A DNA stretch of 64,000 nt, from contig JAJEAV010000033.1 in the NCBI GenBank assembly GCA_022822625.1, positions 3,500 to 67,499 on the forward strand, written 5' to 3'. Below the pieces are notes generated by a model. It was not told the DNA's origin and ran no database searches. It worked only from the letters and a program-made list of their open reading frames with translations. Each line of letters opens with the position of its first letter. The first letter of the stretch is position 1. Position numbers and translations under genes: made by a program. Shown here one piece after another: positions 14,962 through 54,282 of the stretch. The DNA is from Gammaproteobacteria bacterium. GTDB taxonomy: Bacteria; Pseudomonadota; Gammaproteobacteria; Arenicellales; Poriferihabitantaceae.

Positions 14962-15440
14962 ATGATATTGCCTCATCAGGTTAGTGTTCAATTCCTAGTC
15001 AAGCATACCGCATACGAACCGGATGGAATTTCACGATTCGAGTTCCTAATCGATAAATGGAATGCAAACAAGTATGTGAATTTCCTTGCGTGTTATCAGG
15101 TCAAGTATGAAAGGACTGCACGGAAGCTGATAGGGGATCGTGAGGAGCTGATGAACTTCTTCGACTTTCTGGCCAAGCAATGAAAGAGCATCCATACTAC
15201 CAGCCCGATTGAATCAACCTTTGCCACGATCTGCCACGAATCCGGCTGAGCAAGGGTTGCCTGAGCCACAGCATCATGCTTTCCATGATGTTCAGTCAGC
15301 CACGATGGCGAAGATTACGGGGTACCACAGGCTTGCCCAGGCATCCGGGGAGTGAAATTCAAGGACGGAATCGAGATACAATCCGACAGCAAAACGGTAG
15401 CCGCTTGATGAACCTCATCCCCATGCACTACTTTTCGCCA
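14962..15440 (+). mobile_element. IS256/Mutator-family transposase relic (C-terminal third only, frameshifted) with the adjacent element end
   Basis: '...REELMNFFDFLAKQ*' continues after the stop in other frames as 'KSIHTTSPIESTFATICHE', 'KGCLSHSIMLSMMF' and 'GVKFKDGIEIQSDSKTVAA*'. These parallel the IS256-family C-terminus (FYDFP.EHW..IRTTNPIES.F..VR...KG...GVKFxDGI). At least two frameshifts or stops are present. Confidence 0.7.
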
Positions 15441-15623
15441 TAGCTCATGCGTTCTCCGGCACTTCCATTTTCTCATATAATCCCTTGAACATGCTGGCCT
15501 TGATCCGGCACATGACAACCCTTATCAGGAGGTTGAAGATAGAAAGCGATGGTCATTCATTCGTTTCTGAAAACCAATATCTTCAAAGAAATCACCAAGG
15601 GTCAGGAAGTATAAGTCTGGGGG

Positions 15624-35856: not shown

Positions 35857-36099
35857 TCATTTGGAGTCTTCTTCAACAGGTATTAGCTTGACGGGTCGAG
35901 TCGGGACTATGGTTGAAATGGCGTGTTTATAGATAATCTGGTTAACCGAGTTCTTCAAGAGAATGACATACTGGTCATAGGAATCGATTTGGCCCTGTAA
36001 CTTGATGCCGTTAATCAGGAATATCGAAACCGGTATGCGTTCTTTTCTTAACGTGTTTAAAAATGGGTCCTGCAGGGCCGTCCCACTATATTTTTGCAT
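35857..36099 (-). CDS. hfq: RNA chaperone Hfq
   Basis: '[42 protein letters not shown]...[11 protein letters not shown]' (Sm1/Sm2 motifs). Confidence 0.95.
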
Positions 36100-36223: not shown

Positions 36224-36243
36224 AATAATTTGGGAATTATATC
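36224..36243. repeat. Right boundary of the tnpB unit: 8-bp direct repeat AATAATTT (36224-36231) plus 12-bp terminal inverted repeat GGGAATTATATC (36232-36243)
   Basis: Hand-verified against the sequence. The reverse complement GATATAATTCCC occurs at 37469-37480 and is followed by AATAATTT at 37481-37488. Confidence 0.8.
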
Positions 36244-36244
36244 T

Positions 36245-37432: not shown

Positions 37433-37441
37433 GACCTGATT

Positions 37442-37463
37442 GTAACACAATCTAAAGTGTTAC
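37442..37463. repeat. Perfect 7-bp stem / 8-nt loop hairpin (GTAACAC-AATCTAAA-GTGTTAC) between the left TIR and the tnpB start
   Basis: Read directly from the sequence. It lies 10 nt upstream of the tnpB ATG and 6 nt inside the TIR. Confidence 0.6.
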
Positions 37464-37468
37464 CTTTC

Positions 37469-37488
37469 GATATAATTCCCAATAATTT
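37469..37488. repeat. Left boundary of the tnpB unit: TIR GATATAATTCCC (37469-37480) plus direct repeat AATAATTT (37481-37488)
   Basis: This is the partner of 36224-36243 and was hand-verified. Confidence 0.8.
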
Positions 37489-37604
37489 CATACGAATTGA
37501 AATGTGGCTAAAGGAAACGACCTTCAAATGGATTGTAAACCGAAAAACCCCCCTTGCCGAAAATAATTGAATCAACCCGGGCGGGAAATCCAAATGGAAC
37601 TGGA

Positions 37605-38753
37605 TTAGCAATCGCTCCGCTTATGCCACTCGACAAGATTATTTTCTTCGGTGCGAAGTGGGGCAGGATGATCCGGTTTCTCATCGACCCCGTCTACCCA
37701 AAATGGTGAACGTACAGACCTAAGCCGTCCTTCCGTCGGGTGGTCCACTTCGCCGAAAAAATCAACATCGTTCAGGTGTCCATCTTCAAACAAATCTACC
37801 AGAGACTGCACGGCAGAACAGGGAATATCAAGATCGCGCAATAGTTTCAACCAATCTGAATTTGATCGTTCCGACATTGCCTGGGACAGGACTTCATAAA
37901 GATCGGCAATGTGGTCACTGCGCTGTGCGGGGTCCCGCACCCAATCCGCTTCTGCCAGATCGGCACGCCCAATAGCCGTAAAAAACTCTACCCAGTTCCT
38001 GGTACTATACGGCAACACTGCCAAATACCCATCCTTGGTCGCATAAGGTTTGCGATAGGGTGACACGATACGTTCATAACCTGTTGTTCCGATTGCTGGT
38101 ACAAAAGTCTCGCCATCAAGATGCTCGGATAGCAAAAACGATGCAATGCCTTCATACATTGGAACTTCAATACAGCATCCCTGTCCGGTATTTGCATGAT
38201 GTATGAGTCCTGATAGAACTGCCAGGGCCAGATGAAGCCCTCCTACCTTGTCGCAAATGATCGTGGGCAGGAATCGGGGTTCATCCTTGTCGTTGCGGTT
38301 GAGGTCGGCAACTCCACATGCTGCCTGAATGATGTCGTCATAGGCAGGTAGTTCGGCATTTCGCCCGCCACTGGCATAGCCCGCCGCACAGCAATAAACG
38401 ATTTGAGGAAATGCGCTACGTATGCCTTCAGGATCAACACCCAACTGCTTGGCAGTCACCGGCCGCATGTTATGAACCAGTACATCGGCCCCATCCAGCA
38501 AAGACAGCAAATGATTTTTTCCTTCGGGTGATTTCAAGTCCAGTGTAATCGATCGCTTGTTGCGATTATTGTTGAGATACCCCGCTCCCATGCCTTCTGA
38601 ACGAGCAGGACGGACATAACGGAAAAGATCACCCGAGGGTGATTCGACCTTGATGACGTCTGCCCCGAAATCACCGAGATAGCGGGTAGCAAGCGGACCA
38701 AGTACAATCGTTGTCAAATCCAGAACTCTTGCGCCCTTCAGCAAGTCATACAT
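37605..38753 (-). CDS. Family III (CaiB/BaiF) CoA-transferase
   Basis: 'LKGARVLDLTTIVLGPLATRYLGDFGADVIKVESPSGD' and 382 aa length. Confidence 0.85.
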   Translation of the reverse strand: MYDLLKGARVLDLTTIVLGPLATRYLGDFGADVIKVESPSGDLFRYVRPARSEGMGAGYLNNNRNKRSITLDLKSPEGKNHLLSLLDGADVLVHNMRPVTAKQLGVDPEGIRSAFPQIVYCCAAGYASGGRNAELPAYDDIIQAACGVADLNRNDKDEPRFLPTIICDKVGGLHLALAVLSGLIHHANTGQGCCIEVPMYEGIASFLLSEHLDGETFVPAIGTTGYERIVSPYRKPYATKDGYLAVLPYSTRNWVEFFTAIGRADLAEADWVRDPAQRSDHIADLYEVLSQAMSERSNSDWLKLLRDLDIPCSAVQSLVDLFEDGHLNDVDFFGEVDHPTEGRLRSVRSPFWVDGVDEKPDHPAPLRTEENNLVEWHKRSDC

Positions 38754-38939: not shown

Positions 38940-40877
38940 TTACGAATTTGATTTTTGAAAATGAGGTGAAGGATATGTATTCACTGGGGCAAACGAAGTA
39001 TCGTATTGTGGGTAATTCTCTTTGGGATCAAATCCATTATTGAAAGTACCCTTGGAGTTCTTCAGTATGTTGATGGTGGCATCAAGTGCCATTCGCAAGG
39101 CTGGTTCGGTCCAGCCCCCCTCAACACTGTAGTTTTCTCCTGCGAAATAGATTTTTGAATTGCTACTATGTTCCTGATTATATGCCAATAATGCGTAATT
39201 CAAGGCCCAGTTTCTTTGGCGATACAGTTTAGCACAGCCGTGAAAATATGTCTGCTGTGACCAATGTATTACAATTGGGCCACTGTCTATATCAACATAC
39301 TGAATAATCGACTCGTTGAGTGTTGATTGACATATTTCCTCAAGCTTGTCTAGCAGAAACTGTCCGATATAAGAATTGTCGAAAGGCAAAAGTTTAGTAG
39401 CATCATCTTCCCAGGTATAACTCGCCAACAAGACACCTTGTTCTCCACTTTTGTCTGACCATTTCACACCATAGGCATCTTGCACATATTCATCAGTCAC
39501 AATAACTTGAGGGATTTTAGACACGCCATTTTCCCAATATGTCTCTTTCAGTTTATAAAACACTTTGCAACTGGTGATATTATGCTGAGAGTTCCGTGCT
39601 GACAAGACCAATGGGGGCATTTCTGATTGATCAAACCCCGTTAGTTTGATATTTAACTCCGAAGCCCACAAGGTTGGCGTAACAACCACATGATCAACTT
39701 CATAGGTTTCTTTGGTTGAATCTTCACATACGATGTTTATCTTGCCAGTTGATGGATCTTTCTGCAATTCTTGAACCGGAGAATTAGTCAGAATTCGTAC
39801 ATAAGGATTGGATTTTTTCGATGCCTCATATAGTGACGAGTCACTTCCGGGCGGAGGAGCGTAAAACAACCATTCGTCAAGAGCTTGAATGCCTTTGTAA
39901 AGCGGTGGTTCAAGCTTGTTTCCCTTGCTATCTGTAACATCCGAGTTGTAATGCGGCAAGTTGGATTTATCGGTGATACCAACCACAGTTTGCAAGTTTG
40001 AGTTAAACCCGAACATTACGCATCTGATAAACCACATTGAGCTCACTTCATAGAAAGCTCCCCAGCTTCCATCCCCGGACCCAATGAGCGCAAATATTTG
40101 TGCCTGATCATCATCCATGCCAAAACCTCCAAACCAACCATCATTTTGATATTTGGTAATTGCAGGTGTATATACCAGGTCATTTACATTCATCTGTTCA
40201 TAGTTATTTGAAACATTTTTCCAAAATTTACCCCATTCGGCCCCGCTATATAACTTGCCTGCCTCCTGTGTAAACAAGGATACAAAGGCAGAAACCTTCT
40301 GATAAACCTCTTTCAACTTATCGTTGTCCGGAGGAGAAGGATTTGACGGAGTATACGGCCAATCAATTAATGTCGGTTTCGAGTATTCGTTATCAGGTCC
40401 ATAGCCTTTGTTGATATAAATCCCAGTGTTGCCCGGTGCGGCGCCAGGATTGGGGAAATCCTGTAAAGTACAGTTGCCTTCATCCAAAATATAGTACTCA
40501 GATACAGAGTTTTTACTGTCGGGTTTCGAAAAAAATGGGAACCGCATGGCCCCCATTTCCATGTCAGTAACTCCATCTGTATGAGTTGTATAGTGCCTGC
40601 CACAAATTCTACTTGTCGCTTCAATAAGAATGATTTTGTAGCCGCAACGATACAGTTCCCTAGCTGCTGTAATCCCTGCAATACCGCCACCGACTATGCC
40701 GATAGTTGGCGGATTATCAGCATTGGGCGCGTTACCGATTGAATTCTTGTTGTTTTTTGCGAGTGTAAGCAAGTGATAATAATTGAATCGGAAATCAGGA
40801 GGGCTGGGATATGCAGGAAGCCATTCATCAGCAGTGTTAACAACTTGTTGAAGGGGGACATTAAATAGTGTCTTCAT
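38940..40877 (-). CDS. FAD-dependent amine oxidase / amino-acid 2-monooxygenase-like flavoprotein (IaaM / L-amino-acid oxidase family)
   Basis: Dinucleotide fold 'IGIVGGGIAGITAARELYRCGYKIILIEATSRICGR', 'EMGAMRFP' as in tryptophan 2-monooxygenase-type enzymes, and C-terminal 'IYFAGENYSVEGGWTEPALRMAL'. I prefer the ATG at 40877 (MKTLF) over the TTG at 40883. The gene is visibly AT-rich. Confidence 0.7.
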   Translation of the reverse strand: MKTLFNVPLQQVVNTADEWLPAYPSPPDFRFNYYHLLTLAKNNKNSIGNAPNADNPPTIGIVGGGIAGITAARELYRCGYKIILIEATSRICGRHYTTHTDGVTDMEMGAMRFPFFSKPDSKNSVSEYYILDEGNCTLQDFPNPGAAPGNTGIYINKGYGPDNEYSKPTLIDWPYTPSNPSPPDNDKLKEVYQKVSAFVSLFTQEAGKLYSGAEWGKFWKNVSNNYEQMNVNDLVYTPAITKYQNDGWFGGFGMDDDQAQIFALIGSGDGSWGAFYEVSSMWFIRCVMFGFNSNLQTVVGITDKSNLPHYNSDVTDSKGNKLEPPLYKGIQALDEWLFYAPPPGSDSSLYEASKKSNPYVRILTNSPVQELQKDPSTGKINIVCEDSTKETYEVDHVVVTPTLWASELNIKLTGFDQSEMPPLVLSARNSQHNITSCKVFYKLKETYWENGVSKIPQVIVTDEYVQDAYGVKWSDKSGEQGVLLASYTWEDDATKLLPFDNSYIGQFLLDKLEEICQSTLNESIIQYVDIDSGPIVIHWSQQTYFHGCAKLYRQRNWALNYALLAYNQEHSSNSKIYFAGENYSVEGGWTEPALRMALDATINILKNSKGTFNNGFDPKENYPQYDTSFAPVNTYPSPHFQKSNS

Positions 40878-40900
40878 GGTCAAATAAGTATGAGTTATGG

Positions 40901-41020
40901 ATAAAAGGTAGTGCGTGGAGGATGAGATTCATCAAGTGGCTATCGTTGTGCTATCGGATTATACTTTGATTCCGTCCTTGAATTCCACTTCCAGTGTTGT
41001 CCAACAGCAATTACTAATTA
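40901..41020 (-). mobile_element. Second IS256-family tail fragment (last ~20 codons plus the element end)
   Basis: The reverse complement reads '...EVEFKDGIKV*' followed by 'cttgatgaatctcatcctccacgcactac'. By eye it is ~85% identical to 15350-15437 ('GVKFKDGIEI...cttgatgaacctcatccccatgcactac'). Confidence 0.65.
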
Positions 41021-41111
41021 TGAGGATTTTAATTTTACATTGGGTGGTATTCCGGGTTTTAAAAAACGGGTGTTGTGGGGCTGCTCCGTGCCGGAGTAGC
41101 AGTTGGGGAGG

Positions 41112-41264
41112 TCAGGGTCCCTGTGCATTTCGCAGGTGCGGGGAAACGATCTGCGTGAGCAGGGAATGCCGCCTCTTCCGGGTCAGACGCCTGTCCGTCC
41201 AGTCTTCATGGGCCTCTTCAAATCTCATCAGTCTGGTCTCCTCTAGCCATTTTGCCCGCTTCAT
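41112..41264 (-). pseudogene. Short N-terminal fragment of an HTH-type transposase/integrase (decayed)
   Basis: The minus strand encodes 'MKRAKWLEETRLMRFEEAHEDWTDRRLT...', which resembles the N-termini of some integrase-type IS transposases ('...RLMRFEE.Y..W...RLTQEEAA.LLG'). It stops after 50 codons. Confidence 0.3.
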
Positions 41265-41403
41265 GATCTCTCCAAAAAGCGGACAGTTTATGTGCTCGCA
41301 ACATTAACAAAGTTTTTAATTGCAATAGGAAATCGAAATATACATAATATACAATACATCCTTGATAATCCATGTTCGCAAAACAAAAATATCGAAAGCC
41401 ACT

Positions 41404-42963
41404 ATGTCCTGGTTAGCTGTTTTCTTCATCACAATCATTCTCCTTGTAGTGGTTATTGCCGTGTTCAATCGTTTTTACCACAAGGGTTCGCGCGAGAAAG
41501 CCTTGATCAGGACAGGTGCTGGCGGACAAAAAATCGTCATGGATGGGGGCTGTCTCGTGTTGCCCTTCCTGCATCAAGTCGAATTGGTTGACATGAGAAC
41601 AGCATACATGGAAGTTGTGCTGGAAAAAAACAATTCCATACTCACGGAAGACCGGATGCGTGTCGATCTTGGTGTTGCGTTTCATGTCCGAGTCATTCCC
41701 ACCGCTGAAGGTATCGCTACTGCTGCTCAGACGGTCGGAGTCAGGTCCCTCAACCCTGAAAGACTAATTGAATTTCTGAAAGGCAGATTCATAGACGCAC
41801 TGCAAAGCGTTATCGCTACGCATACCATGGACAATTTGCATGAAAATCGATCGCAATTCGTAGCAAGAACAACTGAGTTATTAAGGCCAAGCCTCGAAGA
41901 AAGCGGGCTAAAACTTGAATCTGTGTCTTTGGTGAGACTGGATCAAACAGAGTTTTCTGCACTGAATGAAAACAATGCATTCAATGCTGTCGGGATGAGG
42001 AAGCTGGCAGAAATCGTTACCGCAAACCGCCGAAAACGCAAGGAAGTCGAATCAAGTGCGGATTTGGCGATCCGTCGAACAGAACTGGAAAACATCAAAA
42101 GCCGAATACTCATCGATCTGGAAAAGGAGAAAGCGGAATCTGAAAAAACTATCGAAACGGAACAACTCAAGGCGGAAATGACCCGCCGTTCATCCCATGA
42201 ACGCGAGCAGGCAGAAATTGCATCAGGCCAGGCCAAACTGAATCGAGAACTCGAGATCAAGCGCTCTGAAATTGAACGCGATCAGCAAGTTCGAACAGCC
42301 GAAGTTAACGCATTAAAAGCTGTCGAAGATGCCCGGATTCAAAGTCAAATCGAACTGTCTGAACGCAGGATACAGGAGTCTCAGGCAATGGCAGATGCCG
42401 AATCAAGCCGCAAGGCAATCATTGAAGCGGAAGAAGACGTAAGCCTGGTTCAAGACCGACTGACCGCACAAAGGGCAGGCGAAATAGCCAGAATAAATGC
42501 AGAGCTGGAATCGACAACCGCCATCTACAAGGCCGAAAAAGCAGCGCAAATTGCACAAATTGAATCCGAAAGCGAAAAAGCTTCCTCAGACCTTGTCCAG
42601 GAACAGCTGAAAAATGAAATGTCGGTGAAAGCCCAGGGAGCACTCGAAATGATCAATGCTGAAAATGCCATGGATTCAGAGCTGATTGCAATGAAGCTCG
42701 AAGAGAGGAGATTAAACGTTCTTCCGGACATGGCAGACAAAATGTCACGCCCCCTGGAAAAAATCGGCAAGATTCACATCAATCATGTGGCCGGACTTGG
42801 TTCTGCCCCCAAGGGCGAAAAACAATCCTCTGGTTCGATTGTTGATGAAGTCCTTGATCTTGCCTTTCGGATGCCAGCCGTTAAAAAACTCGGCGAGGCT
42901 GTCGGTGCGGAAATCATCACCCCTGAAAATAAAAACGATACAATCAAGAACAAGAAGAAATGA
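41404..42963 (+). CDS. Flotillin/YqiK-like SPFH-domain membrane protein
   Basis: N-terminal TM 'MSWLAVFFITIILLVVVIAVF', an SPFH core ('ALIRTGAGGQKIVMDGGCLVLPFLHQVELVDMR'), then ~250 aa of E/A/K/Q-rich coiled coil. The ATG is at 41404. Confidence 0.75.
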   Translation: MSWLAVFFITIILLVVVIAVFNRFYHKGSREKALIRTGAGGQKIVMDGGCLVLPFLHQVELVDMRTAYMEVVLEKNNSILTEDRMRVDLGVAFHVRVIPTAEGIATAAQTVGVRSLNPERLIEFLKGRFIDALQSVIATHTMDNLHENRSQFVARTTELLRPSLEESGLKLESVSLVRLDQTEFSALNENNAFNAVGMRKLAEIVTANRRKRKEVESSADLAIRRTELENIKSRILIDLEKEKAESEKTIETEQLKAEMTRRSSHEREQAEIASGQAKLNRELEIKRSEIERDQQVRTAEVNALKAVEDARIQSQIELSERRIQESQAMADAESSRKAIIEAEEDVSLVQDRLTAQRAGEIARINAELESTTAIYKAEKAAQIAQIESESEKASSDLVQEQLKNEMSVKAQGALEMINAENAMDSELIAMKLEERRLNVLPDMADKMSRPLEKIGKIHINHVAGLGSAPKGEKQSSGSIVDEVLDLAFRMPAVKKLGEAVGAEIITPENKNDTIKNKKK

Positions 42964-43047
42964 AACACGGAACCGTATTCAGATGCCAATTCCATGGACA
43001 TTTGTCTACGCTATCCTTACATACACATTAGAGAGGAGTTATCCAAT

Positions 43048-44283
43048 ATGAACATAAAACGACGTCAATTCATCAAGGGTGCCGGGGCAGCCAGCGCCTC
43101 GCTATTTGTACCTCAACTTGCATTTTCCGCTTCTGGACCAGTCAAAATGGGAGTGTTGCTTGACACCTCAGGCCCGTTCAGCGCTTATGGAACACCAATG
43201 GAAATGGCGACTCGCCTTGCTGTAAAGCAAATCAATGACGGCGGGGGATTGCAAGGAAGGGAAGTCGAAATCGTGTTTCGAGACACTCAATCAGACATGA
43301 ATAATTACTCGACTTTTGCAAATCAGTTGGTACGTGAGGGGCTGGACGTATTCCACGGAGGCATTCTCTCTGCATCCAGAGAGGCAATCCGGCAAATATT
43401 GCGCCAAAGGGGAGTACCCTACTTTTACAACGTATTGTATGAAGGGGGCGTATGTGATCGAAACACTTTTGCCACAGGAACGACACCCGCACAACAGGTA
43501 GATGCGTTAATTCCATATGCAATAAATAAATTTGGCGCAAGGAAACTATACGTTCTGGCAGCAAACTACAACTACGGACAGATTACCTCCGCATGGGTCA
43601 ATGAGTATGCAAAAGCAAATGGCGCTACCGATGTTGAAGTCGAATTTTTTGACCTGTCGGATGGCGAATTCGGACCTGCTGTAATCGCAAAAATCCAAGA
43701 AGCTGACAGTGACTTGGTTGTATCCGTTCTTGTTGGTGCCGCCCATCTGAGTTTCTACGGACATTGGGCGGAAACCGGCATGAATCAGAATCCCGATGTC
43801 CACTTGGTTTCAACAACATTTGGAGTGGGTAATGAACACAAAGTATTGCCGGCCAACCAGAGTGACGGCATGCTGATCGCAAACAACTGGGCTCCCGATA
43901 ACCCTTCTGTTCCAGAGAACAAGAAGTTTCTGGATAGTTGGATTGCGGAGTATGGCGATACTGAAGCCATCCACGAGATTGCGGTTTCACAATATCATGG
44001 TATCTTGCTTTGGGCTGAAGCTGCTCGACAGGCTGGTGGGGTAGACAAGGAGTCCATTACCAAGGCACTTGAAAGCGGCATCTCAATTATCGGGCCTGCA
44101 GGTATGGTGAAAATGGACCCACTTACTCACCATTGCAGTCTCGACATTAATATTATGGAGTTAAGTGGTCAGAAGCTGAATGTAGTTCAGAAACTCGAGC
44201 AACGTGAACCACTGGATACTCGACGCTTCTGCAACTTGTCTGAAAACCCTGATTCCAACGTACAGTATGAAATAACCCTGTAG
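43048..44283 (+). CDS. ABC transporter substrate-binding protein, type I PBP (AmiC/FmdD/urea-amide/branched-chain family) with a Tat-type signal
   Basis: RBS GAGAGGAG lies at 43031-43038. The signal is 'MNIKRRQFIKGAGAASASLFVPQLAFS'. 'VKMGVLLDTSGPFSAYG' and 'KLYVLAANYNYGQ' are typical of the Leu/Ile/Val/amide-binding fold. Confidence 0.8.
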   Translation: MNIKRRQFIKGAGAASASLFVPQLAFSASGPVKMGVLLDTSGPFSAYGTPMEMATRLAVKQINDGGGLQGREVEIVFRDTQSDMNNYSTFANQLVREGLDVFHGGILSASREAIRQILRQRGVPYFYNVLYEGGVCDRNTFATGTTPAQQVDALIPYAINKFGARKLYVLAANYNYGQITSAWVNEYAKANGATDVEVEFFDLSDGEFGPAVIAKIQEADSDLVVSVLVGAAHLSFYGHWAETGMNQNPDVHLVSTTFGVGNEHKVLPANQSDGMLIANNWAPDNPSVPENKKFLDSWIAEYGDTEAIHEIAVSQYHGILLWAEAARQAGGVDKESITKALESGISIIGPAGMVKMDPLTHHCSLDINIMELSGQKLNVVQKLEQREPLDTRRFCNLSENPDSNVQYEITL

Positions 44284-44344
44284 AGAAAATCACTTTCAAG
44301 TTAATTCTCTGGTTGGAATTACTGTTTCCCTTCTTCGTAGCAAT

Positions 44345-44382
44345 GAGATTGCGCTTCAAATTTGCAGATGGAGCGCAATCTC
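44345..44382 (+). promoter_or_regulatory. Intercistronic stem-loop (11-bp perfect stem, 16-nt loop) between the binding-protein and permease genes
   Basis: GAGATTGCGCT (44345-44355) pairs with AGCGCAATCTC (44372-44382). No clean U-tract follows. ABC operons often carry such mRNA-stabilising or attenuating hairpins after the SBP gene. Confidence 0.45.
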
Positions 44383-44448
44383 GGAATTTTCCTGATTTGC
44401 GCCCGTTCTCAAACAGCAGGGCTGGTGCATTCCCGTTTTTTTGGTGAA

Positions 44449-45315
44449 ATGGACATCACAGCCATATTCATCCTGCAGATTTTCTATGCCATAGCCTTAC
44501 TGGCACTGATTTCTTTCGGGCTCGCGCTGATATTCGGAATGATGCGCGTCATCAATCTGGCCCATGGAGAATTCCTGACCCTCGGAGCCTATGCAACAAT
44601 TCTTTCTGCCAAAATGGGTGTTAATCTATGGATATCCATGCTTGTCATTTCTCCGCTGGTGGTCGGCCTGTGGAGCTTGATCGTTGAACGCCTTCTGATC
44701 AGATTCCTGTATGGTCGACTCGTGTACACGATGCTGGCCACATGGGGACTGAGTCTCGCCATGGCTGGCGCAATGACCATGATTTTCGGAACCACAACCG
44801 AAGGCGTGTCAGCACAGGCTGGTTCTTTCTCGGTCGGAACCTATCAGGCAAGCCTGTACAGCATTTATGTGATTGTGATAACGATTATCGTGGCGATGGT
44901 GATTGCCTTTGTTCTATTTGGCTCAAACTATGGTCGAGTCGCCCGTGCCGCGATGGAAAATCGAGAAATGGTAGAAGCATTCGGGTACCCGATCAACAAG
45001 GTTTACATGTGGACATTCGTAGCAGGCGGCATGCTATCTGGTTTAGCCGGAGGCATATTGGCGCCAACTACGGGAATTTCACCCTATAGCGGAAGTGCCT
45101 GGATAGCAGATGCCTTCATCACGGTCATTTCGGGCGGAACGGGTTCGGTGATGGGCACACTGGTGAGTGCTGGCATTTTGGGGTCCGTATCTTCGATCAC
45201 CTCCTTCATCTTCAGTTCTGCGTCCGGCGGGGTCGCTCTGCTTATAGCTGCCCTTGTACTGTTGCGCATTCTTCCTACCGGCATATCCAGCCTGTGGCAA
45301 CAGCGTAACCGATGA
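44449..45315 (+). CDS. Branched-chain/amide-type ABC transporter permease (LivH-like)
   Basis: 'MDITAIFILQIFYAIALLALISFGLALIFGMMRVINLAHGEF'. The protein is polytopic and the ATG is at 44449. Confidence 0.85.
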   Translation: MDITAIFILQIFYAIALLALISFGLALIFGMMRVINLAHGEFLTLGAYATILSAKMGVNLWISMLVISPLVVGLWSLIVERLLIRFLYGRLVYTMLATWGLSLAMAGAMTMIFGTTTEGVSAQAGSFSVGTYQASLYSIYVIVITIIVAMVIAFVLFGSNYGRVARAAMENREMVEAFGYPINKVYMWTFVAGGMLSGLAGGILAPTTGISPYSGSAWIADAFITVISGGTGSVMGTLVSAGILGSVSSITSFIFSSASGGVALLIAALVLLRILPTGISSLWQQRNR

Positions 45316-46349
45316 GTCTTGGTCAAAACAATTTCACAAAGAGCATGGTTGCTCCATTGCTCTTGTCAATACCGGTGATTGTTATCGCACCGTCAGTGAT
45401 GCAGCCCTATGCACTGGCGCAACTGTCCATCTTTGCCCTTTTGGCTTTAAGCCTTGGCTTGATATGGGGGTACGGGGGTATTCTGTGCTTTGGACAAGGT
45501 GCTTTTTTTGGTATTGGGGCCTATTCATACGTGATTTTGGTTACGAATCTATCGCTCCCCTGGACGTCCCTGATTTTGGCAGTTTTCTGCACAATGCTTG
45601 TCGCCGGATGCCTGGGACTGGTAATGTTTTATGGAAGGCTGGGGGATGTTTATCTCGCTGTTGTTACCCTGGTCTTTACCCTGATCCTGAATCGATTCAT
45701 GAACGCAACCGCCGGACCCGAGTACCACATCGGATCAGCCAGACTCGGAGGGTTTAACGGCATTCCTGGCTTTGACATGCTGAAACTGCCATGGAGTGAC
45801 TCGATGTTCATCCCGGATATTCTGTTCTTTTACATTTGCTTTGGATTTCTCATCATCTCCTGGATATTTTGTCGCTGGTTATTGAAAACTCATTTTGGCC
45901 GGGTGATGATTGCCATTCGCGAAAACGAGAGGAAGGTCGAATTTGCAGGCTATGACACACGATTGCACAAAACAATGACGTTTGCGATTGGAGGCGGTTT
46001 GGCTGGCATAGCGGGCGTTTTATATGCAAACTGGGCCGGAATCGTCACCCCGAGCCTGTTCAGCCTAACCCAGTCTGCGGAGATTATCATATGGACAATT
46101 GTTGGCGGACTTGGCACGTTGATCGGGCCAATCGTTGGCGCCGTCCTGCTGATGCTGCTGAAGCTGTTGCTCGGATACCAGACAGTTGTCGATAACTATT
46201 TTTTGCTGGGAGTTCTGCTAATCCTTGTTGTACTGTGGTTTCCCAATGGAATTGCAGGAGCTACAATGCAGTCGAGATTCCTTCAAAAAAATACGGCGAC
46301 GAAAAAATGGCGAACACATTCAAACCGTACAATGAATGTCAAACGATGA
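45312..46349 (+). CDS. Branched-chain/amide-type ABC transporter permease (LivM-like)
   Basis: There is an ATGA overlap with the upstream permease. 'LIWGYGGILCFGQGAFFGIGAY' and 'AIRENERKVEFAGYD' are typical LivM motifs. Confidence 0.85.
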   Translation: MSLGQNNFTKSMVAPLLLSIPVIVIAPSVMQPYALAQLSIFALLALSLGLIWGYGGILCFGQGAFFGIGAYSYVILVTNLSLPWTSLILAVFCTMLVAGCLGLVMFYGRLGDVYLAVVTLVFTLILNRFMNATAGPEYHIGSARLGGFNGIPGFDMLKLPWSDSMFIPDILFFYICFGFLIISWIFCRWLLKTHFGRVMIAIRENERKVEFAGYDTRLHKTMTFAIGGGLAGIAGVLYANWAGIVTPSLFSLTQSAEIIIWTIVGGLGTLIGPIVGAVLLMLLKLLLGYQTVVDNYFLLGVLLILVVLWFPNGIAGATMQSRFLQKNTATKKWRTHSNRTMNVKR

Positions 46350-47091
46350 TTCAGGATTAGTTTCTGTGTCCAATCTTGCTGTACTTCAAATTGAGGATTT
46401 GGTCGTCAGATTTGGCGGTGTAGCTGCCGTTGACGGTATCAACCTTACCCTCAATAGAAACGAATTGCGCTGTTTAATTGGTCCAAATGGAGCAGGGAAA
46501 AGTACGCTGTTCAAGGCGATTGCCGGTTTGGTACAACCATTATCTGGCAGAATTTGGGTCAAGAGCGAAGAAACAACGCACTTACCCCCTCATCTGGTAG
46601 CCCGCAGAGGAATCAGTGTAAAAACTCAGGTTCCCAGTTTACTGGAAGGACTGACAGTCTATGAAAACCTCTGGATTGTTGCTCGACGGAAATATCGCCG
46701 GCAAAGCTGCAAAAAAATGATTGAGCCCGTTATGGAAAGTGTTGGAATCTCGAATGATTCAACCACAATCGTAAACACCATGGCTCATGGAAGACGTCAA
46801 TTGGTTGAGTTTGCAACAGCCCTGATCGCCAAACCTTCCATTATGCTACTGGATGAGCCGGCAGCCGGGCTGTCCGATAAAGAAGTTGCAGATTTTGCCA
46901 AATTGCTGCACACCCTGCCCTCCCAGATGTCATTACTTGTTGTTGAACACAACATGAAATTTGTGCAAATGATTGCTCAACAAGTCAGCGTTCTTCATAA
47001 AGGCAGACTTCTCATTTCAGGCGAACCGGATCTTGTTTTCAACGATACAAGAGTTCAGGAAGTCTATCTGGGCAAGGAGGCCACTGCATGA
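46336..47091 (+). CDS. ABC transporter ATP-binding protein (LivG-like)
   Basis: Walker A 'GPNGAGKST', Walker B 'IMLLDEPAAGLS', and H-loop 'VVEHNM'. Confidence 0.9.
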   Translation: MSNDDSGLVSVSNLAVLQIEDLVVRFGGVAAVDGINLTLNRNELRCLIGPNGAGKSTLFKAIAGLVQPLSGRIWVKSEETTHLPPHLVARRGISVKTQVPSLLEGLTVYENLWIVARRKYRRQSCKKMIEPVMESVGISNDSTTIVNTMAHGRRQLVEFATALIAKPSIMLLDEPAAGLSDKEVADFAKLLHTLPSQMSLLVVEHNMKFVQMIAQQVSVLHKGRLLISGEPDLVFNDTRVQEVYLGKEATA

Positions 47092-49415
47092 ACGGTAACT
47101 CATCCTTCAATTTGCTGACAGTCAAGAATCTGAGCGCGGGTTACTCGGGAATTTCCGTGCTTAGAGATGTCAACCTGCATGTCAGTGAAGGAGAGTGCGT
47201 TGGCCTTTTCGGTCATAATGGCATGGGAAAGTCAACACTGCTTCGAACCTTGATTGGCTTGATTCGACCCCTGTCAGGGTCCATCGAGTTTGACGGTCAG
47301 GATATTACCCATCTTCCCACATGGAAAAGAGCCAGACTGGGTATGGGGTACCTACCTCAGGGGCGCGGTATTTTCCCCAGCCTTTCTGTTTCAGACAATG
47401 TCAGCATTGCATACAATCCGGACACTCGAGACAAGGATGAGCTGTCTGCCCTGGAAAGTGCAATCGCACGCTTTCCAATACTGGAACCTCTGCTCAAGCA
47501 GTCCGGCGGCACTCTAAGCGGTGGCGAACAGCAGATACTTGCACTAGCAAGGGCACTTACCGCCGATCCGGTCATGCTGCTTCTGGACGAACCAACAGAA
47601 GGAATTCAACCTTCCATCGTGATGGAAATTGCGAATGAACTGGCTACGATCGCAAAAAATACCGGACTAACCATATTGATGGTTGAGCAAAACATAGATT
47701 TCCTGAACGTCCTGGCGGATCGAGTCCTGCATATTGAAAACGGTAGAATTACTGAGCAGGGGAATCGATCTTCAAGTAGCATAGCACAGCCAAAACCGCA
47801 ACCATCCATTCCTCGAACTGAAACTGCAGTATCTACGACAGATTCTGGTCAGGAAGAATCTTTCGAGATCACTAGTGAACCAATTTTGGAGAAACAAATG
47901 CCAGTATCAAGACCGACAATTGATCAAATGCAAAAGATTTCGTCGGACCTTTATTTTCATATCGACAAAACTACCCTGACTGAATACCTGGACTTGGCTC
48001 AGTCCACCATTGATGCTTATGACGTTGTCGATGCAATGCCTGATGAATTGCCGGAGGTGAAATACCCCAGAACCGGCGGTCATATACCCGCAGAATCAGA
48101 AAACCCATTGAACGCCTGGTATGTGAAATGCGATATTCCAGGATCCCCGGACGGCCCGCTTAACGGCAAGGAAGTGGTACTAAAAGATACCATTTCCCTG
48201 TCTGGCATCAGAATGATGAATGGTGCGTCAATTATGGATGGATACGTGCCGGATATTGACGCATCGATTGTTACCCGAATTCTGGATTCCGGCGGAAAAA
48301 TTGTTGGAAAGGCGCGATGTGAATATCTCTGCCTGTCAGGCGGGAGCCATACCAGTACCGGCGGGCCGGTCAAGAACCCTTGGCGAACTACTCATTCATC
48401 AGGGGGGTCTTCATCAGGTTGCGGTGCCCTGATTGGTGCAGGAGAAGTGCCCATGGCAATTGGAGGAGATCAGGGAGGATCAGTCAGGATACCTTCTTCA
48501 TGGTCAGGTTGTTATGGCATGAAACCGACCCATGGGCTAGTGCCCTACACAGGCGTTATGGGGATTGAGCGCACTATTGATAATGTCGGGCCAATGACCA
48601 GAACCGTGCATGACAATGCATTGCTGCTTGAATCCATTGCCGGTTTTGATGATGGTTTGGACCCCCGTCAATACAGCATCAAAACCAATGCGTATGCGAC
48701 AGACATGCTTCAGGGAATTGCCGGGTTGCGGATCGGGGTCGTCAATGAAGGATTCGGATGGCCAAACAGTGAGTCGGATGTAGACGAATGCGTGCACTCG
48801 GCAATTGATTTGTTGCGTACTTTGGGAGCAAGGGTTGAAGAGTTGTCAATCCCCCTGCATCGGCAGGGCTCTGCCATATGGACACCCATTGCTCTTGAGG
48901 GGTTAACCGATTTCATGATGCATGGCAATACCTTTGGGACCAACTATCGCGGCTTGTACATGACCAGCATGATTGATCATTATGCCAATTGGCGAAACCG
49001 TGCTGATGAACTGTCTCCCAGTCTAAAAATCTGCATGATGATCGGGGAATACTTCATAAAGCATCATCGAGGGCGATATTATGGGAAGTCCCAGAATCTG
49101 TCGCGGCGACTACGCCGTGCCTATGACAATGCTTTTCAGCAATTCGATCTTTTGGTCATGCCAACGATTCAGATGAAGGCAACACCCCTGCCACCTCCCG
49201 ATGCACCGCTATCACTGTATATTCAACGAGCATTTGAAATGATTGTGAATACTGCACCGTTCAATTGTACAGGCCATCCCGCCATGAGCATACCATGCGG
49301 ACTAAGAGATGGACTACCGGTCGGAATGATGCTGATTGGAAAGTACCTGGATGAGTCAACAATCTACCGGGCCGCATACGAATTCGAACAATCATCCAAC
49401 TGGCAGGGGCTTTGA
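47088..49415 (+). CDS. Fusion protein: LivF-like ABC ATP-binding domain (aa ~1-225), low-complexity linker, then an amidase-signature (AS) family amidase (aa ~271-775)
   Basis: The N-terminal part has Walker A 'GHNGMGKST', signature 'LSGGEQQ', Walker B '[10 protein letters not shown]' and 'VEQN'. The linker is '[45 protein letters not shown]' (nt ~47760-47897). The C-terminal part has '[17 protein letters not shown]' and the AS core '[47 protein letters not shown]'. There is no stop codon between the two parts, and an in-frame ATG sits at 47898. Confidence 0.8.
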
Positions 49416-49422
49416 CTACACA

Positions 49423-51219
49423 ATGAGCAAGCTCGGCAAACCAATTACTGATCTTTCCAATCCCCTGATTGATTATTCGATCATTCCTGCCTGTTCATCT
49501 TCTTCATCGGGGAGTCATGGCCAGAAGTCAACTCGAAAATTCGTACGGCCGGGCATGTCCCATGTCAAGGGAGATACAACGACTCCCTTGCTCGAATTAT
49601 CCATCCCGGAGTTGGTCAATAAAACTGTTCGCAACCATCCCCAACGAACAGCTGTGGTGTTTTGCGATCAAGACATCCGGAAAACCTGGCAGGAGTTTGC
49701 GGCAGACATTGATCGGCTTGCCGCAGGATTTCTGGCTCTGGGGTTGAAAAAAGGCGATCGTTTGGGCATCTGGTCACCGAATTGTTATGAGTGGTTGCTA
49801 ACTCAGTTTGCCACCGCTAGAACGGGAGTGATTCTGGTCACCATCAACCCCGCCTACAAAATATCTGAACTAGGACATGTACTGGAAACGTCGGGATGCA
49901 AGGCCATTATCATGGCTCAGCAATTCAAGTCCAGTAACTATGTTGAAATGTTTCTGCAGCTCAAGGTGGATACATCCACATCCGAATTTCCTGATTATGG
50001 TTTGCCGAAACTGAAACACGCAATCGTTATCCACAATCAAGGTCAGAATGATACGCCAGCTGGGATGCATGCATTTTCCGAAATCATGAGCTTGCCCGGC
50101 CCCGCACATATTTTGCGTCTCGACGAAATCAGTGCCGACCTGCATCCAGATGATGCAATCAATATCCAGTTTACCAGTGGCACAACCGGCTTGCCAAAGG
50201 GTGCCACCCTTTCCCATCGAAATATCCTCAACAACGGGAAGTTTGTCACGGATGCCCAGGGATTTACGGAAAATGACAAGTTATGCATACCTGTTCCCCT
50301 GTATCACTGTTTTGGAATGGTTATGGGGGCCTTGGGCTGTGCGACCAAAGGTGCGACCATGGTGTTTCCTTCAGAGGGTTTCGAAGCAGCGGGTACTGCC
50401 CGTGCGATAGCCAAGGAAAGGTGTACAGCATTGTATGGCGTACCCACCATGTTTAATGCAATCCTGACTCTCGAAGACTTTGATTCGTATGACCTGACCT
50501 CTCTGAGAACCGGGGTCATGGCTGGTGCACCCTGCCCAATCGAAATCATGAAACGAGTTGTCGATGACATGCACATGACAGAAGTAACAATTGCTTACGG
50601 CATGACTGAAACAAGCCCGGTTTCCTTTCAAAGCAACCTGGATGACCCGATTGAAATGCGGGTATCAAAAGTCGGTCGGGTCCATCCGCATGTGGAATGT
50701 CGTGTTATTGATGACGAAGGCAATACAGTGCCAGTTGGACAACAGGGTGAATTATGCACTCGCGGCTATTCGGTCATGAAGGGATACTGGAACGACTCCG
50801 CACAAACCAGGGAGTCCATCGACACTGATGGTTGGATGCATTCGGGTGACCTGGCCATTATTGATAATATGGGATATTGCAACATTGTTGGTCGCGTCAA
50901 GGATATGATCATTCGTGGCGGAGAAAATATCTACCCAAAGGAAATCGAGGAATACCTTCACCAACATCCGGGAATTCAGGATGTTCAGGTGTTCGGTGTC
51001 CCAGATCACCATCTGGGTGAAGAAGTATGTGCGTGGGTAGTTCCGGTAGGTTCTCAAGGATTAAACGAACAAGACGTCATTGATTTCTGCAAAGGGCAAA
51101 TTGCCCATTACAAGGTGCCCCGTCATGTGCGAATTCGCGATGATTTGCCAATGACGGTTACTGGAAAAGCGCAAAAGTACAAAATGCGAGAAGCCATGAT
51201 TACGGAATTGGAACTATAA
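49423..51219 (+). CDS. AMP-binding acyl-CoA synthetase (ACSF2/medium-chain-like); start uncertain (49423 or 49555)
   Basis: '[16 protein letters not shown]', 'YGMTETSP', 'GWMHSGDLA', '[22 protein letters not shown]', and '[11 protein letters not shown]'. Confidence 0.85.
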
Positions 51220-51497: not shown

Positions 51498-52475
51498 CTA
51501 TTGCTGACTCGGCAACGGATTGCCGGCATCAGCCTTGACGTTCAACGACTGCAGATATTCGAAAATCATCCTCTCGGGGTTCCGATCCTCGGCATTTACC
51601 CACACTACGCTGGATTGATTACGCAACCATGTCAGTTGTCGCTTTGCCAGTTGCCGAGTCGCCGCTATGCCCTTTTCGATCATTTCGTCCTCGCTTGACT
51701 TGCCATGCAGATAATCGATTACCTGACGGTATCCAACGCTACGCATGGAAGACAGGGTTTCAGGTCTCTTGAGTTTTCCGATCAACATTTCAACTTCACG
51801 GACCAATCCTTTTTCAATCATGTCCAAAAATCGCACCTTGATCCGCTCATGCAAAATTGGCCGAGGACGAAACAACGCGATTTTTCGATACTGGATTTTC
51901 ATGCTTTGAGGACGTGATTCTGCCATCACCGACGAAGGAGGCTGGCCGGTAATTCTGAATATCTCCAAGGCTCTCTTGATTCGTTGTGCATCCTGGGCCC
52001 TGATTTTTCCTGCGCTCGCCGGATCAATCTCTGCAAGCTGTCGATGCAGATATTCCAGGCCCTTTTTCTTGCCTATCCGCTCAATTTCAGACCGCGCCTC
52101 CGAATCTGCTCCAGGCAGTTTTGATATTCCGTTTTCCAGTACCGAAAAGTAGAACATGGTGCCACCCACCAGAAGCGGTGTCTTGCCTTTGGCGAGAATC
52201 GACTCAATGAGAGACAGAGCATCATTTCTGAATTCTGCGGCCGAATAGCTCTCGGTGATACCACGAATATCGATCAAGTGATGGGGAACGCGTTGTAAAA
52301 ACTCCTGATCCGGCTTTGCCGTACCGATATTCATGCCGCGATAGACCTGACCGGAATCCACGCTAATCAATTCTGCATCCAGAAGCCCGAAGAGATGTTC
52401 TGCAACCGATGACTTGCCGACTGCAGTAGGGCCCATCAGAAAAACAGCAATGGGAACAGAGGGTTTATCTGCCAC
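51498..52475 (-). CDS. miaA: tRNA dimethylallyltransferase
   Basis: P-loop 'LMGPTAVGKSS', 'ELISVDSGQVYRGMNIGTAKP', and 'PHHLIDI'. The start overlaps the end of mutL. Confidence 0.9.
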   Translation of the reverse strand: MADKPSVPIAVFLMGPTAVGKSSVAEHLFGLLDAELISVDSGQVYRGMNIGTAKPDQEFLQRVPHHLIDIRGITESYSAAEFRNDALSLIESILAKGKTPLLVGGTMFYFSVLENGISKLPGADSEARSEIERIGKKKGLEYLHRQLAEIDPASAGKIRAQDAQRIKRALEIFRITGQPPSSVMAESRPQSMKIQYRKIALFRPRPILHERIKVRFLDMIEKGLVREVEMLIGKLKRPETLSSMRSVGYRQVIDYLHGKSSEDEMIEKGIAATRQLAKRQLTWLRNQSSVVWVNAEDRNPERMIFEYLQSLNVKADAGNPLPSQQ

Positions 52476-54282
52476 GCATAAACCATTTGTCTAGTTCGAC
52501 CATTGTAAGACTCATCCAGGTTGGACGACCATGGTTGCACTGTCCTGAACGTTCAACAGATTCAATCTGTCGCAATAACGCATTCATTTCGAGAATTTCC
52601 AGCTTTCTGTTTGCCCGAACTGCTCCATGACAGGCAATGGAAGAAAGAACCTCATTAATCGCATTTCGTGGGCGATCGCTACTTCCATGTTCCAGAAGAT
52701 CCGAGGCAGTATCCCGAATCATGGTTTCAATGTCGTTGTTCTTGAGCAGTTCCGGAACCGTCCGAATGACTACTTGATCTTCCGCAAACACTTCTATCTC
52801 GAACCCGAGCCTGCCCAACTCGTCTTTATGGGATTCCAGACAGCGAACCTCGGAAAATGACATGGCGATTCTGATCGGCACCAGCAGGGGTTGAGTCCGT
52901 ATCGAGTCCTGAGAATCCAGTTGCTGCTTTAGTGATTCATACGTGATTCGCTCATGTGCGGCATGCATGTCCACCAAAATCATTCCATCCTTGTTCTCTG
53001 CAAGAATATAGACTCCCTTGATTTGAGCAACTGCATGTCCGAGAGGTGGCAAATCTTCATCTTCTTCCTTTTCGGTCGTTGACCCGGATGGGTTCAGACC
53101 CATATCCCATATATTGGCGGTCAAACTACCTGAAGCCTGATCCGAAGCCGGCATCCTGATACGTTGCTGGGAACCACTGGCAGCGCCTGACCAACGACCC
53201 TGCACTCTACCGGCATCCGGCAAGGGCAGTGCAACTTCGCCTTCTTCCGGCGAAATCCCTGCCACGGCCCGATTCAGGGTTCGAAAAAGAAAATCGTAAA
53301 CCATGCGACTTTCCCGGAACCTGACTTCATTCTTGGCGGGGTGCACATTCACATCGACAAGCCTTGAATCGAGTTTCAGAAACAGCACAAATGCGGGGTG
53401 TCGTCCGTGGTAAAGCACATCGCTGTATGCCCGTTTGACTGCATGCGAGGCCAGGTGGTCAGTGACCGATCGCCCATTGACAAAGAAATACTGCAAGTCA
53501 CGCTGACTCCTCGAGAATGTCGGTAGACCAATCCAGCCTTCAAGTGCATAGCCATCGACTGCATAATCGATATACATGGACTGATTGGTAAACGGCTGAC
53601 CACATACTTTGATCATGCGTTCGGACATGGTTGCAACATCCGTAGCCCGGTAGGTCTGGAATACCGTCTTCCCATCACGCATGAAATCAATAGCCACAGA
53701 TGGATTGCCCAGAGCAATTTTTCGGACAACCGCATCACAATGATTAAACTCGGTCGACTCGGTGCGCAGGAACTTTCGCCGTGCAGGAGTATTGACGAAC
53801 AAGTCCTCAATCTCGACAGTCGTGCCGACTGGATGGGCTATAGGCCTGATCTCGCTAACTGGCGTGCCACCATGTGCGCGATATTCATATCCCGAATCTT
53901 CATCTGCGACGCGGGTTTTCAGAGTGAGTCTCGATACGGCTGCAATACTCGGCAATGCCTCGCCCCTGAAGCCCATCGTAGCCAGATTGAACAGATCATC
54001 TGCGGAACTGAGCTTGCTGGTCGCATGCCGGGAAACAGCCAGGGGAATCTGATCATGAGGTATGCCGGATCCGTTATCATTCACCGAAACACGCTTTATG
54101 CCGCCACGATCAATGTGAATACGGATTTCTGTAGCACCGGCATCCAGACTGTTTTCAAGTAGCTCCTTGAGTAGCGATGCGGGTCGTTCAACCACTTCCC
54201 CAGCCGCGATCTGGTTGACCAGATTGTCATCCAGAAGTCGAATTTCGGCAGGAAGTTTCTTTTGCATCCGACTCAGAGTCAA
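52465..54282 (-). CDS. mutL: DNA mismatch repair endonuclease MutL
   Basis: 'LVNQIAAGEVVERPASLLKELLENSLDAGATEI', 'GFRGEALPSI', and C-terminal 'QCNHGRPTW'. Confidence 0.9.
   Translation of the reverse strand: MTLSRMQKKLPAEIRLLDDNLVNQIAAGEVVERPASLLKELLENSLDAGATEIRIHIDRGGIKRVSVNDNGSGIPHDQIPLAVSRHATSKLSSADDLFNLATMGFRGEALPSIAAVSRLTLKTRVADEDSGYEYRAHGGTPVSEIRPIAHPVGTTVEIEDLFVNTPARRKFLRTESTEFNHCDAVVRKIALGNPSVAIDFMRDGKTVFQTYRATDVATMSERMIKVCGQPFTNQSMYIDYAVDGYALEGWIGLPTFSRSQRDLQYFFVNGRSVTDHLASHAVKRAYSDVLYHGRHPAFVLFLKLDSRLVDVNVHPAKNEVRFRESRMVYDFLFRTLNRAVAGISPEEGEVALPLPDAGRVQGRWSGAASGSQQRIRMPASDQASGSLTANIWDMGLNPSGSTTEKEEDEDLPPLGHAVAQIKGVYILAENKDGMILVDMHAAHERITYESLKQQLDSQDSIRTQPLLVPIRIAMSFSEVRCLESHKDELGRLGFEIEVFAEDQVVIRTVPELLKNNDIETMIRDTASDLLEHGSSDRPRNAINEVLSSIACHGAVRANRKLEILEMNALLRQIESVERSGQCNHGRPTWMSLTMVELDKWFMRGR

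Follow-up and report, generated by a model that had tools for sequence, protein, structure and literature searches.

In the IaaM/IaaH system of Pseudomonas savastanoi and Agrobacterium, a gene of the flavin 2-monooxygenase family adjoins the gene of an amidase-signature hydrolase. The DavB/DavA pair (lysine 2-monooxygenase and 5-aminovaleramidase, the latter of the nitrilase superfamily) follows the same logic of amino acid to amide to acid, as does the oxidase/monooxygenase of Pseudomonas sp. AIU 813. The AmiC/FmdD-type amidase/formamidase systems couple an amidase to the sensing or import of small amides, and they share a binding-protein and transporter family with the Urt importers. Signature amidases of the PRK07235 group, such as those of Rhodococcus sp. 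N-771 and Sulfolobus, take short aliphatic and aromatic primary amides; they are stand-alone enzymes linked to nitrile hydratase genes. Here we describe a locus that brings elements of all these systems together. It lies in a 64,000-nucleotide stretch (the window) of contig JAJEAV010000033.1 from a gammaproteobacterium of the Arenicellales, where a gene for an IaaM-like oxidase stands divergently beside an operon encoding a flotillin, an ABC importer with an amidase fused to one of its ATPases, and an acyl-CoA synthetase. The route from amino acid through amide to acid is familiar; what is new is the importer, the hydrolase-transporter fusion, the flotillin and the CoA ligase joined to it.

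We think it probable on balance, from the comparisons set out below, that the operon would form a self-contained route for an external primary amide, with the oxidase as an optional second entrance. An earlier note on this DNA had proposed an amide-centred module made up of an amide-forming flavoenzyme, an amide importer, an amidase, an acyl-CoA synthetase and a CoA-transferase. All five functions are indeed encoded. However, the amidase is not a separate gene but part of a fusion, the flotillin was missing from the list, and the CoA-transferase gene falls outside the range 38940-51219 that was said to hold all of them (Table 1).

Importer operon with a fused amidase

The operon (41404-51219) comprises genes for the flotillin, a binding protein, two permeases, an ABC ATPase, the ATPase::amidase fusion and the acyl-CoA synthetase. 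They overlap (45312/45315, 46336/46349 and 47088/47091) or sit tight, with 8 nucleotides between the amidase stop and the most likely synthetase start, which is ATG 49423 rather than the upstream TTG 49336 assumed previously. The same gene order recurred in 38 loci of Alpha-, Beta- and Gammaproteobacteria, the flotillin gene lay directly upstream of the binding-protein gene in 38 of 38 flotillin-type loci, and the operon occurs widely in marine Alpha- and Gammaproteobacteria.

Within the single frame of the fusion, an ATPase (residues 10-230; UrtE, 247 bits) is followed by a Ser/Pro/Thr-rich linker and then by an amidase, which matched the PRK07235 model over its full length (residues 271-773, the C-terminal ~506 residues; 754 bits, cut-off 545). 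The amidase part also aligned along its whole length with the Rhodococcus sp. N-771 amidase 3a1k (~50% alignment, 1.4e-137), and its residues K366, S441 and S465 correspond to K96, S171 and S195, the catalytic residues of that enzyme. By its GGSS[GS]G signature and intact Lys-cisSer-Ser triad we assign the domain to the amidase signature family. The earlier note had named such an enzyme correctly, but the kinship with IaaH that it pointed out does not extend to the subgroup: the indoleacetamide hydrolase (IaaH) model gave only 203 bits against a cut-off of 532. Whereas the Rhodococcus and Sulfolobus enzymes stand alone, the amidase of the window forms the C-terminal half of an ABC ATPase. Both fusion domains were present in all of the best 120 of 7690 significant matches; several of these 120 came from ocean surveys.

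The same features set the locus apart from other described systems. Compared with AmiE/FmdA systems, its hydrolase is a Ser-cisSer-Lys amidase fused to an ATPase, and the operon further includes a flotillin and a CoA ligase. Unlike DavA, it is an amidase-signature enzyme, and nothing points to lysine as the substrate. The locus departs from IaaM/IaaH in having its amidase joined to a transporter ATPase and in bringing along an importer and a CoA ligase, and so looks like a catabolic module rather than one that produces auxin.

The binding protein fits the amide/urea family in which it had been placed before. Its closest solved relative was PDB 8tg1 (2.9e-37); urea-binding proteins matched at 1e-28 to 1e-37 and AmiC at 7e-19. 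Its Tat-like signal gave a weak TAT_signal match (21 bits, under the Pfam cut-off of 22.7). Both permeases are of the HAAT type and carry BPD_transp_2. In contrast to genuine Urt importers, the system scored under every cut-off of the Urt models: UrtA at 184-297 bits (cut-off about 493-495), the upper value being that of urea_ABC_arch (cut-off 495); UrtB at 179-210 (250-374); UrtC at 187-239 (296-576); UrtD at 221 (304); and UrtE, with the score given above, against 286. The importer is therefore related to the urea importers but not orthologous to them.

The synthetase reached 806.6 bits on PRK12583 ('fatty acid CoA ligase family'; cut-off 832), and its orthologue in a locus without the importer (L024, described below) reached 819 bits. 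Its best solved relatives were the fatty-acyl/feruloyl-CoA synthetases 8weu/8wev (2e-76). This ligase family may give a weak hint of the substrate class.

The flotillin carries Band_7 (55 bits) and Flot (60 bits) domains, both over their cut-offs, and a hydrophobic stretch, WLAVFFITIILLVVVIAVF, lies after Met15 of the open reading frame (ORF) as an N-terminal membrane anchor. With anchor, SPFH and C-terminal flotillin domain in place, the gene product classifies as a bacterial flotillin of the FloT/YqiK type; no NfeD partner gene was present beside it. It is unusual for a flotillin to be tied to a single ABC importer. A scan centred on the fused amidase (loci L088-L140) revealed two forms of the operon, one with flotillin and synthetase and one without either: among operons with complete flanks, both genes were present in 20, neither in 11 and one only in 2. 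Strict co-occurrence of flotillin and CoA ligase would provide bacterial flotillins with a client system that is genetically defined, something rarely available.

Our proposal for how these parts would act is as follows. The urea/amide-type binding protein would capture a primary amide in the periplasm, and the ABC importer, judging from its family, would bring it in. The amidase tethered to the transporter ATPase would split the amide at entry into a carboxylic acid and ammonia, and the acyl-CoA synthetase would trap the released acid as a CoA thioester for further breakdown. The flotillin, in view of its first position and its co-occurrence with the synthetase, probably holds the machinery together in the membrane. 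Where present, the cytoplasmic oxidase would turn an amino acid by oxidative decarboxylation into the imported amide or one similar to it, a carbon shorter, for the amidase and synthetase; this feeder step is suggested by the family, fold and residues of the oxidase and by its recurring hydrolase partners. Thus, of the joint pathway suggested in the earlier note, import, hydrolysis and CoA activation fit the operon genes, but the CoA-transferase is not a conserved member.

As for the substrate class, small primary amides, aliphatic or aromatic, are suggested by the type of the binding protein and by the Rhodococcus-like amidase. Short or branched aliphatic amides, or arylacetamides, are the candidates. 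In one locus (L007:8076-9760) and 15 other alphaproteobacterial loci with the flotillin-type operon, a second, shorter urea/amide-type binding protein is encoded upstream, and a divergent HpaR-like MarR regulator lies upstream of the flotillin gene in the same operons; the window has neither. The alphaproteobacterial MarR protein was closest to HpaR (67 bits, cut-off 121), a weak hint that might point to arylacetates.

The fused-amidase operon is common among marine and host-associated proteobacteria; identifying its substrate would reveal a further way in which dissolved organic nitrogen and carbon are used in the ocean and by sponge holobionts. A full-text literature search, which leaves many journals uncovered, found no paper that dealt with the operon, with a link between a flotillin and an ABC importer or an amidase, or with 'Poriferihabitans'; a paper on Agrobacterium SPFH proteins (PMC8656257) is unrelated to the operon.

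A bolder version of this proposal, which we regard as rather unlikely, is that flotillin, importer with ATPase-tethered amidase, and synthetase form one membrane-bound assembly for vectorial uptake, hydrolysis and CoA trapping, coupled in the manner of group translocation, into which amide-making lineages have plugged a 2-monooxygenase. If true, it would be a group-translocation-like amide uptake of a kind not described so far, and in a sponge symbiont the amide could come from the host or the community.

The oxidase and its association with the operon

The oxidase has no signal peptide and carries the sequence EMGAMRFP at residues 109-116, bearing out its description as an IaaM-like flavoprotein with a GAMRFP motif. 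It matched NAD_binding_8 in addition to Amino_oxidase, and its best solved relative by sequence was tryptophan 2-monooxygenase (4iv9, 4.6e-26). In a Foldseek search with the AlphaFold model (pLDDT 88, pTM 0.92), 5yb7, 5yb6, 4iv9 and 3we0 came out on top, with E values of 1e-31 to 1e-28 and template-modelling (TM) scores of 0.76-0.80. The best structural match, 5yb7/5yb6 (TM 0.77-0.79), is an L-amino-acid oxidase/monooxygenase of the lysine type from Pseudomonas sp. AIU 813; with 4iv9 included, the TM range is 0.77-0.80. The four top-ranking solved folds represent the two known decarboxylating monooxygenase types, and true L-amino-acid oxidases ranked after them.

In tryptophan 2-monooxygenase, K365 is the lysine at flavin N5, and the arginine of the GAMR motif binds the substrate carboxylate. 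The window oxidase has K440 and Y489 at the positions of K365 and Y413, and both are invariant in 85 relatives. The carboxylate-binding R114 is invariant as well, but partly by construction: GAMR was one of the two patterns used to search for relatives, whereas K440 and Y489 were not search patterns, so that only these two count as independent conservation. The FAD motifs (G65/G67/G70, E88 and G582/E583) are retained by 84-85 of the 85 relatives. With FAD motifs, Arg/Lys/Tyr and the three-domain fold all present, the oxidase belongs to the L-amino-acid oxidase/2-monooxygenase superfamily.

Its identity to characterised enzymes is only ~20-22% (~22% to 4iv9, ~20% to the AIU 813 enzyme), and relative to IaaM it is ~90 residues longer, with a conserved N-terminal extension. 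It is not the tryptophan-specific IaaM proper; sequence comparison places it in a separate clade, as a distant relative of tryptophan and lysine 2-monooxygenases. This agrees with a published remark that many proteins annotated as 'IaaM' fall into a second group of homologues with non-auxin roles (PMC5766252). Pairing with the operon gives a testable function for this 'group II' IaaM-like family, which is routinely mis-annotated as tryptophan 2-monooxygenase.

The oxidase gene does differ in composition from its neighbours, as had been noticed (GC content 0.42 against 0.46-0.51). The same low-GC offset was found in orthologous oxidase loci L001, L002, L004 and L005 (58-81% protein identity), and it is thus a long-standing property of the gene. 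A very recent separate acquisition, which low GC might have signalled, was ruled out because these four related loci share the offset.

We then looked at oxidase neighbourhoods in one genome per species, using an oxidase profile that yielded 80 loci onto which the proteins of the window were mapped. The flotillin-type operon, or at least its amidase and synthetase, stood beside the oxidase in ~12 of the 80 loci and on further metagenome contigs; none of the contexts described here was found in ~33. The operon adjoined oxidases that were 81, 79, 72, 60, 58, 48 and 46% identical to that of the window. In a tree of 85 oxidases, the operon-linked members fell into at least three well-supported separate clades, requiring a minimum of 4-5 label changes. 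The clade of the window contains sponge-type Gammaproteobacteria and two metagenome contigs; the second is alpha/beta-proteobacterial and contains Salinarimonas, Aquibium, a Rhodospirillaceae assembly and Variovorax, L024 branching off first; and the third, remote from these, consists of L045 ('Candidatus Spongiihabitans') and L054 (Arenicellales). Gene order varied too: the oxidase gene is divergent in the clade of the window and in Salinarimonas, precedes the operon on the same strand in L005, L045 and L054, and follows it on the same strand in L026 and L061.

The locus L054 (L054:10025-21890) is instructive in this respect. Its operon proteins are 63-77% identical to those of the window, while the oxidase, upstream on the same strand, is 41% identical and sits on the far side of the tree; it looks as if one family member has been replaced by a paralogue. 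In L024, a stand-alone amidase, the synthetase and the oxidase lie behind a TonB-dependent receptor, without flotillin, ABC permease or ATPase genes. In another of the 80 loci (L073), the oxidase accompanies an amidase-signature enzyme and an ABC system that is of the amide type but more distant.

A different hydrolase recurs in Pseudomonas, where 24 of 25 loci pair the oxidase homologue with a nitrilase-superfamily hydrolase, a 403-amino-acid protein and usually an asparaginase. The adjacency to a nitrilase-superfamily hydrolase is that of DavB to DavA, and the cluster looks like a second DavB/DavA-style pair. The oxidase homologues of this cluster (L062-L087, for example L086:9923-15243) are 36-38% identical to that of the window, and the 403-amino-acid protein matches no family.

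Within the genus of the window, oxidase and fused amidase were both found in three assemblies (G000, G002 and G003), 8.5 kb apart in G002, and neither was found in G001 and G004-G006, which are 90-94% complete. In a further relative, G007 (75% complete), only the oxidase was found, on a contig of 6 kb that breaks off in the flotillin gene.

Taken as a whole, the recurrence of the pair is good comparative evidence that oxidase and amide operon cooperate wherever both occur. It supports the co-function proposed in the earlier note, which had treated as damaging the case that the two halves never co-localise elsewhere; in other genomes they do, in at least three clades and three gene orders.

Counter-evidence and rival readings

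Several observations weigh against the operon as an amide route into which the oxidase feeds. In a scan centred on the operon, the oxidase lay within 10 kb in only 1 of ~21 complete flotillin-type operons, that of Salinarimonas. When whole genomes carrying flotillin-type operons were searched with the oxidase profile, three of five gave no match at E <= 1e-20, and the remaining two had only more distant oxidase homologues elsewhere in the genome. Adjacent genomes of one genus are, moreover, non-independent observations. Every Urt equivalog model stayed under its cut-off, and the ligand is not readable from them. Nor can sequence separate an oxidase from a decarboxylating monooxygenase. Finally, two GT4 glycosyltransferases were encoded directly downstream of the oxidase in 15 of the 80 loci, and the acidobacterial and Gemmatimonadota loci of this kind contained no amidase within 10 kb, so that the oxidase family has a context outside the amide model. 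Since most flotillin-type operons have no oxidase, the operon can do without it; it would function by itself on an external substrate, with the oxidase as an add-on.

The ambiguity between oxidase and monooxygenase leads to the main rival, in which the two halves are parallel feeders. Here a plain L-amino-acid oxidase would yield a 2-oxo acid, decarboxylated by its own H2O2 or by another enzyme, and the shortened acid would meet the product of the amidase at the synthetase. True L-amino-acid oxidases carry the same Arg/Lys/Tyr, those of snake venom and fungi were also strong fold matches (TM 0.68-0.77), and the synthetase accompanies the oxidase in flotillin-type loci and in L024. However, the closest folds are of the decarboxylating type, and H2O2 release by a cytoplasmic oxidase would be costly. 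In addition, the Pseudomonas partner is a hydrolase without synthetase and L073 has an amidase without synthetase, which makes an amide hydrolase the recurring partner of the oxidase. We therefore consider parallel feeders unlikely.

The glycosyltransferase context suggests another rival: an unrelated primary role of the oxidase, tied to the GT4 pair (for example, in making or modifying a glycosylated compound), with adjacency to the operon reflecting shared islands or regulation. The oxidase-GT4-GT4 loci come from Acidobacteriota, Gemmatimonadota and Alphaproteobacteria, and the glycosyltransferase-linked clade is sister to that of the window. One oxidase homologue at 52% identity is likewise followed by two glycosyltransferases, with no operon adjacent. 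Both contexts occur together in 4 of the 80 loci (Aquibium and three Salinarimonas) and in L026, and the island of the window, inserted between miaA and hfq, has mobile elements at its flanks. On the other side, the clade of the window, L045/L054, L061, L024 and all Pseudomonas loci have an amide hydrolase yet no GT4 gene, and hitch-hiking poorly explains three gene orders and a paralogue replacement. A primary role tied to the GT4 pair thus seems quite unlikely to us, and we retain the oxidase as an optional source of amide for the operon. The GT4-type loci are L006, L007, L012, L013, L015-L022, L026, L031, L041 and L055; their paired glycosyltransferases measure ~565-630 and 345-370 amino acids, and in L026 the GDP-mannose genes ManC and ManB follow.

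The CoA-transferase downstream of the oxidase belongs to family III (PF02515, 322 bits, residues 5-367), and none of the equivalog models for formyl-CoA, mesaconate, glutarate or carnitine transferases reached its cut-off. It lies on the same strand as the oxidase, 186 bp after it, with no terminator-like site between. Direct adjacency of this kind was found only in the genus of the window (the window, L008 and L010); as an exception, a single family III gene, 28% identical, follows an oxidase relative in L058. The 81%-identical orthologue in L001 and L009 is the last gene of a LysR/acyl-CoA dehydrogenase/TRAP/cupin/transferase operon, 6 kb from the oxidase, in which it overlaps the stop of the cupin gene and after which hfq-hflX follows, as in the window. 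Neither in L002-L007 nor in the remaining operon-linked clades does a transferase gene stand next to the oxidase. The most economical reading makes the transferase a remnant or member of this neighbouring, partly deleted operon; that it shares one pathway with oxidase and operon, moving CoA onto the amidase-released acid or recycling CoA, is very unlikely, all the more as the operon has its own CoA-activating enzyme.

In L001 ('Candidatus Poriferihabitans'; L001:12457-19402), the operon from LysR to transferase lies between oxidase and hfq, and the window retains the transferase alone. A gcdH/gcoT-like glutarate branch of lysine breakdown, made up of the CoA-transferase and the acyl-CoA dehydrogenase of L001, was considered and dropped, as no specific model scored over its cut-off.

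Island setting and neighbouring genes

The block of ~15 kb between hfq and miaA splits a usual miaA-hfq neighbourhood (Table 1). In L002, the row mutL-miaA-hfq-hflX-hflKC-hisZ-purA is unbroken and the same module lies beyond purA. The module has thus been relocated within the lineage.

Table 1. Features of the island and its surroundings; coordinates count from the first nucleotide of the window
Feature	Position	Strand	Basis
hflX	34435-35799	-	ORF listing and Pfam/NCBIfam scans
80-codon ORF read as hfq	35857-36099	-	Position and homology to the hfq-hflX stretch of L001/L008; ORF itself not scanned
TnpB-carrying insertion at the hfq-side island edge, outside the module	36230-37590	-	TnpB match; absent in L008
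TnpB	36245-37450	-	NF040570, 236 bits
Family III CoA-transferase, neighbour, probably outside the module	37605-38753	-	CoA_transf_3 8e-96
Flavin amine-oxidase-family protein, 645 aa	38940-40877	-	Pfam Amino_oxidase 6.5e-28
Divergent oxidase/flotillin spacer, 478 bp	40884-41361		~370 bp of multi-copy insertion sequence/repeat fragments (blastn)
SPFH/flotillin	ORF 41362-42963, likely gene 41404-42963	+	Band_7 1.3e-14, Flot 3.6e-16
Peripla_BP_5/6 binding protein, Tat-like signal	42994-44283	+	Peripla_BP_6 3e-73
UrtB-like permease	44362-45315	+	BPD_transp_2
UrtC-like permease	45312-46349	+	BPD_transp_2
UrtD/LivG-like ABC ATPase	46336-47091	+	ABC_tran 1.2e-30
UrtE/LivF-like ABC ATPase::amidase fusion	47088-49415	+	Single 775-codon frame
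AMP-forming acyl-CoA synthetase, 598 aa	49423-51219	+	AMP-binding 2.5e-98 and AMP-binding_C
miaA	51498-52475	-	Identified as miaA
mutL	52465-54282	-	Identified as mutL

The nearest named relatives of the genome are sponge-associated Arenicellales and 'Candidatus Poriferihabitans' assemblies. The assembly measures 2.56 Mb and is 94% complete, and both the oxidase and the fused amidase are single-copy in it. A search of sequencing runs found the stretch in three DNA runs of one sponge-metagenome study and in no RNA run.

As pointed out before, oxidase and CoA-transferase lie on the strand opposite to the ABC/amidase genes, and insertion sequence (IS) debris separates the halves. The debris is real but limited: the spacer is a mosaic of repeats, pieces of which occur on more than 20 contigs of the same genome. 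In the closest relative, L008 (84-89% DNA identity), oxidase and flotillin genes have the same divergent order with a spacer of only ~108 bp, and the TnpB unit is absent from this otherwise collinear locus (compared with L008:4066-4342). The mobile DNA thus arrived recently in an arrangement that was already in place. A DDE transposase gene lies between oxidase and flotillin in L001, and no remnant of it was found in the window. A promoter-like site at 41320-41348(+) was not above chance, and the counts of predicted promoters and terminators did not exceed the shuffled expectation, so that transcript boundaries cannot be inferred from them.

One 103-bp repeat of the spacer (40890-40992) recurs inverted and 83% identical at 15348-15448 of the window. 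Further copies lie on three other contigs of the genome (C80, C90 and C14), and the repeat is probably an IS end or a miniature element.

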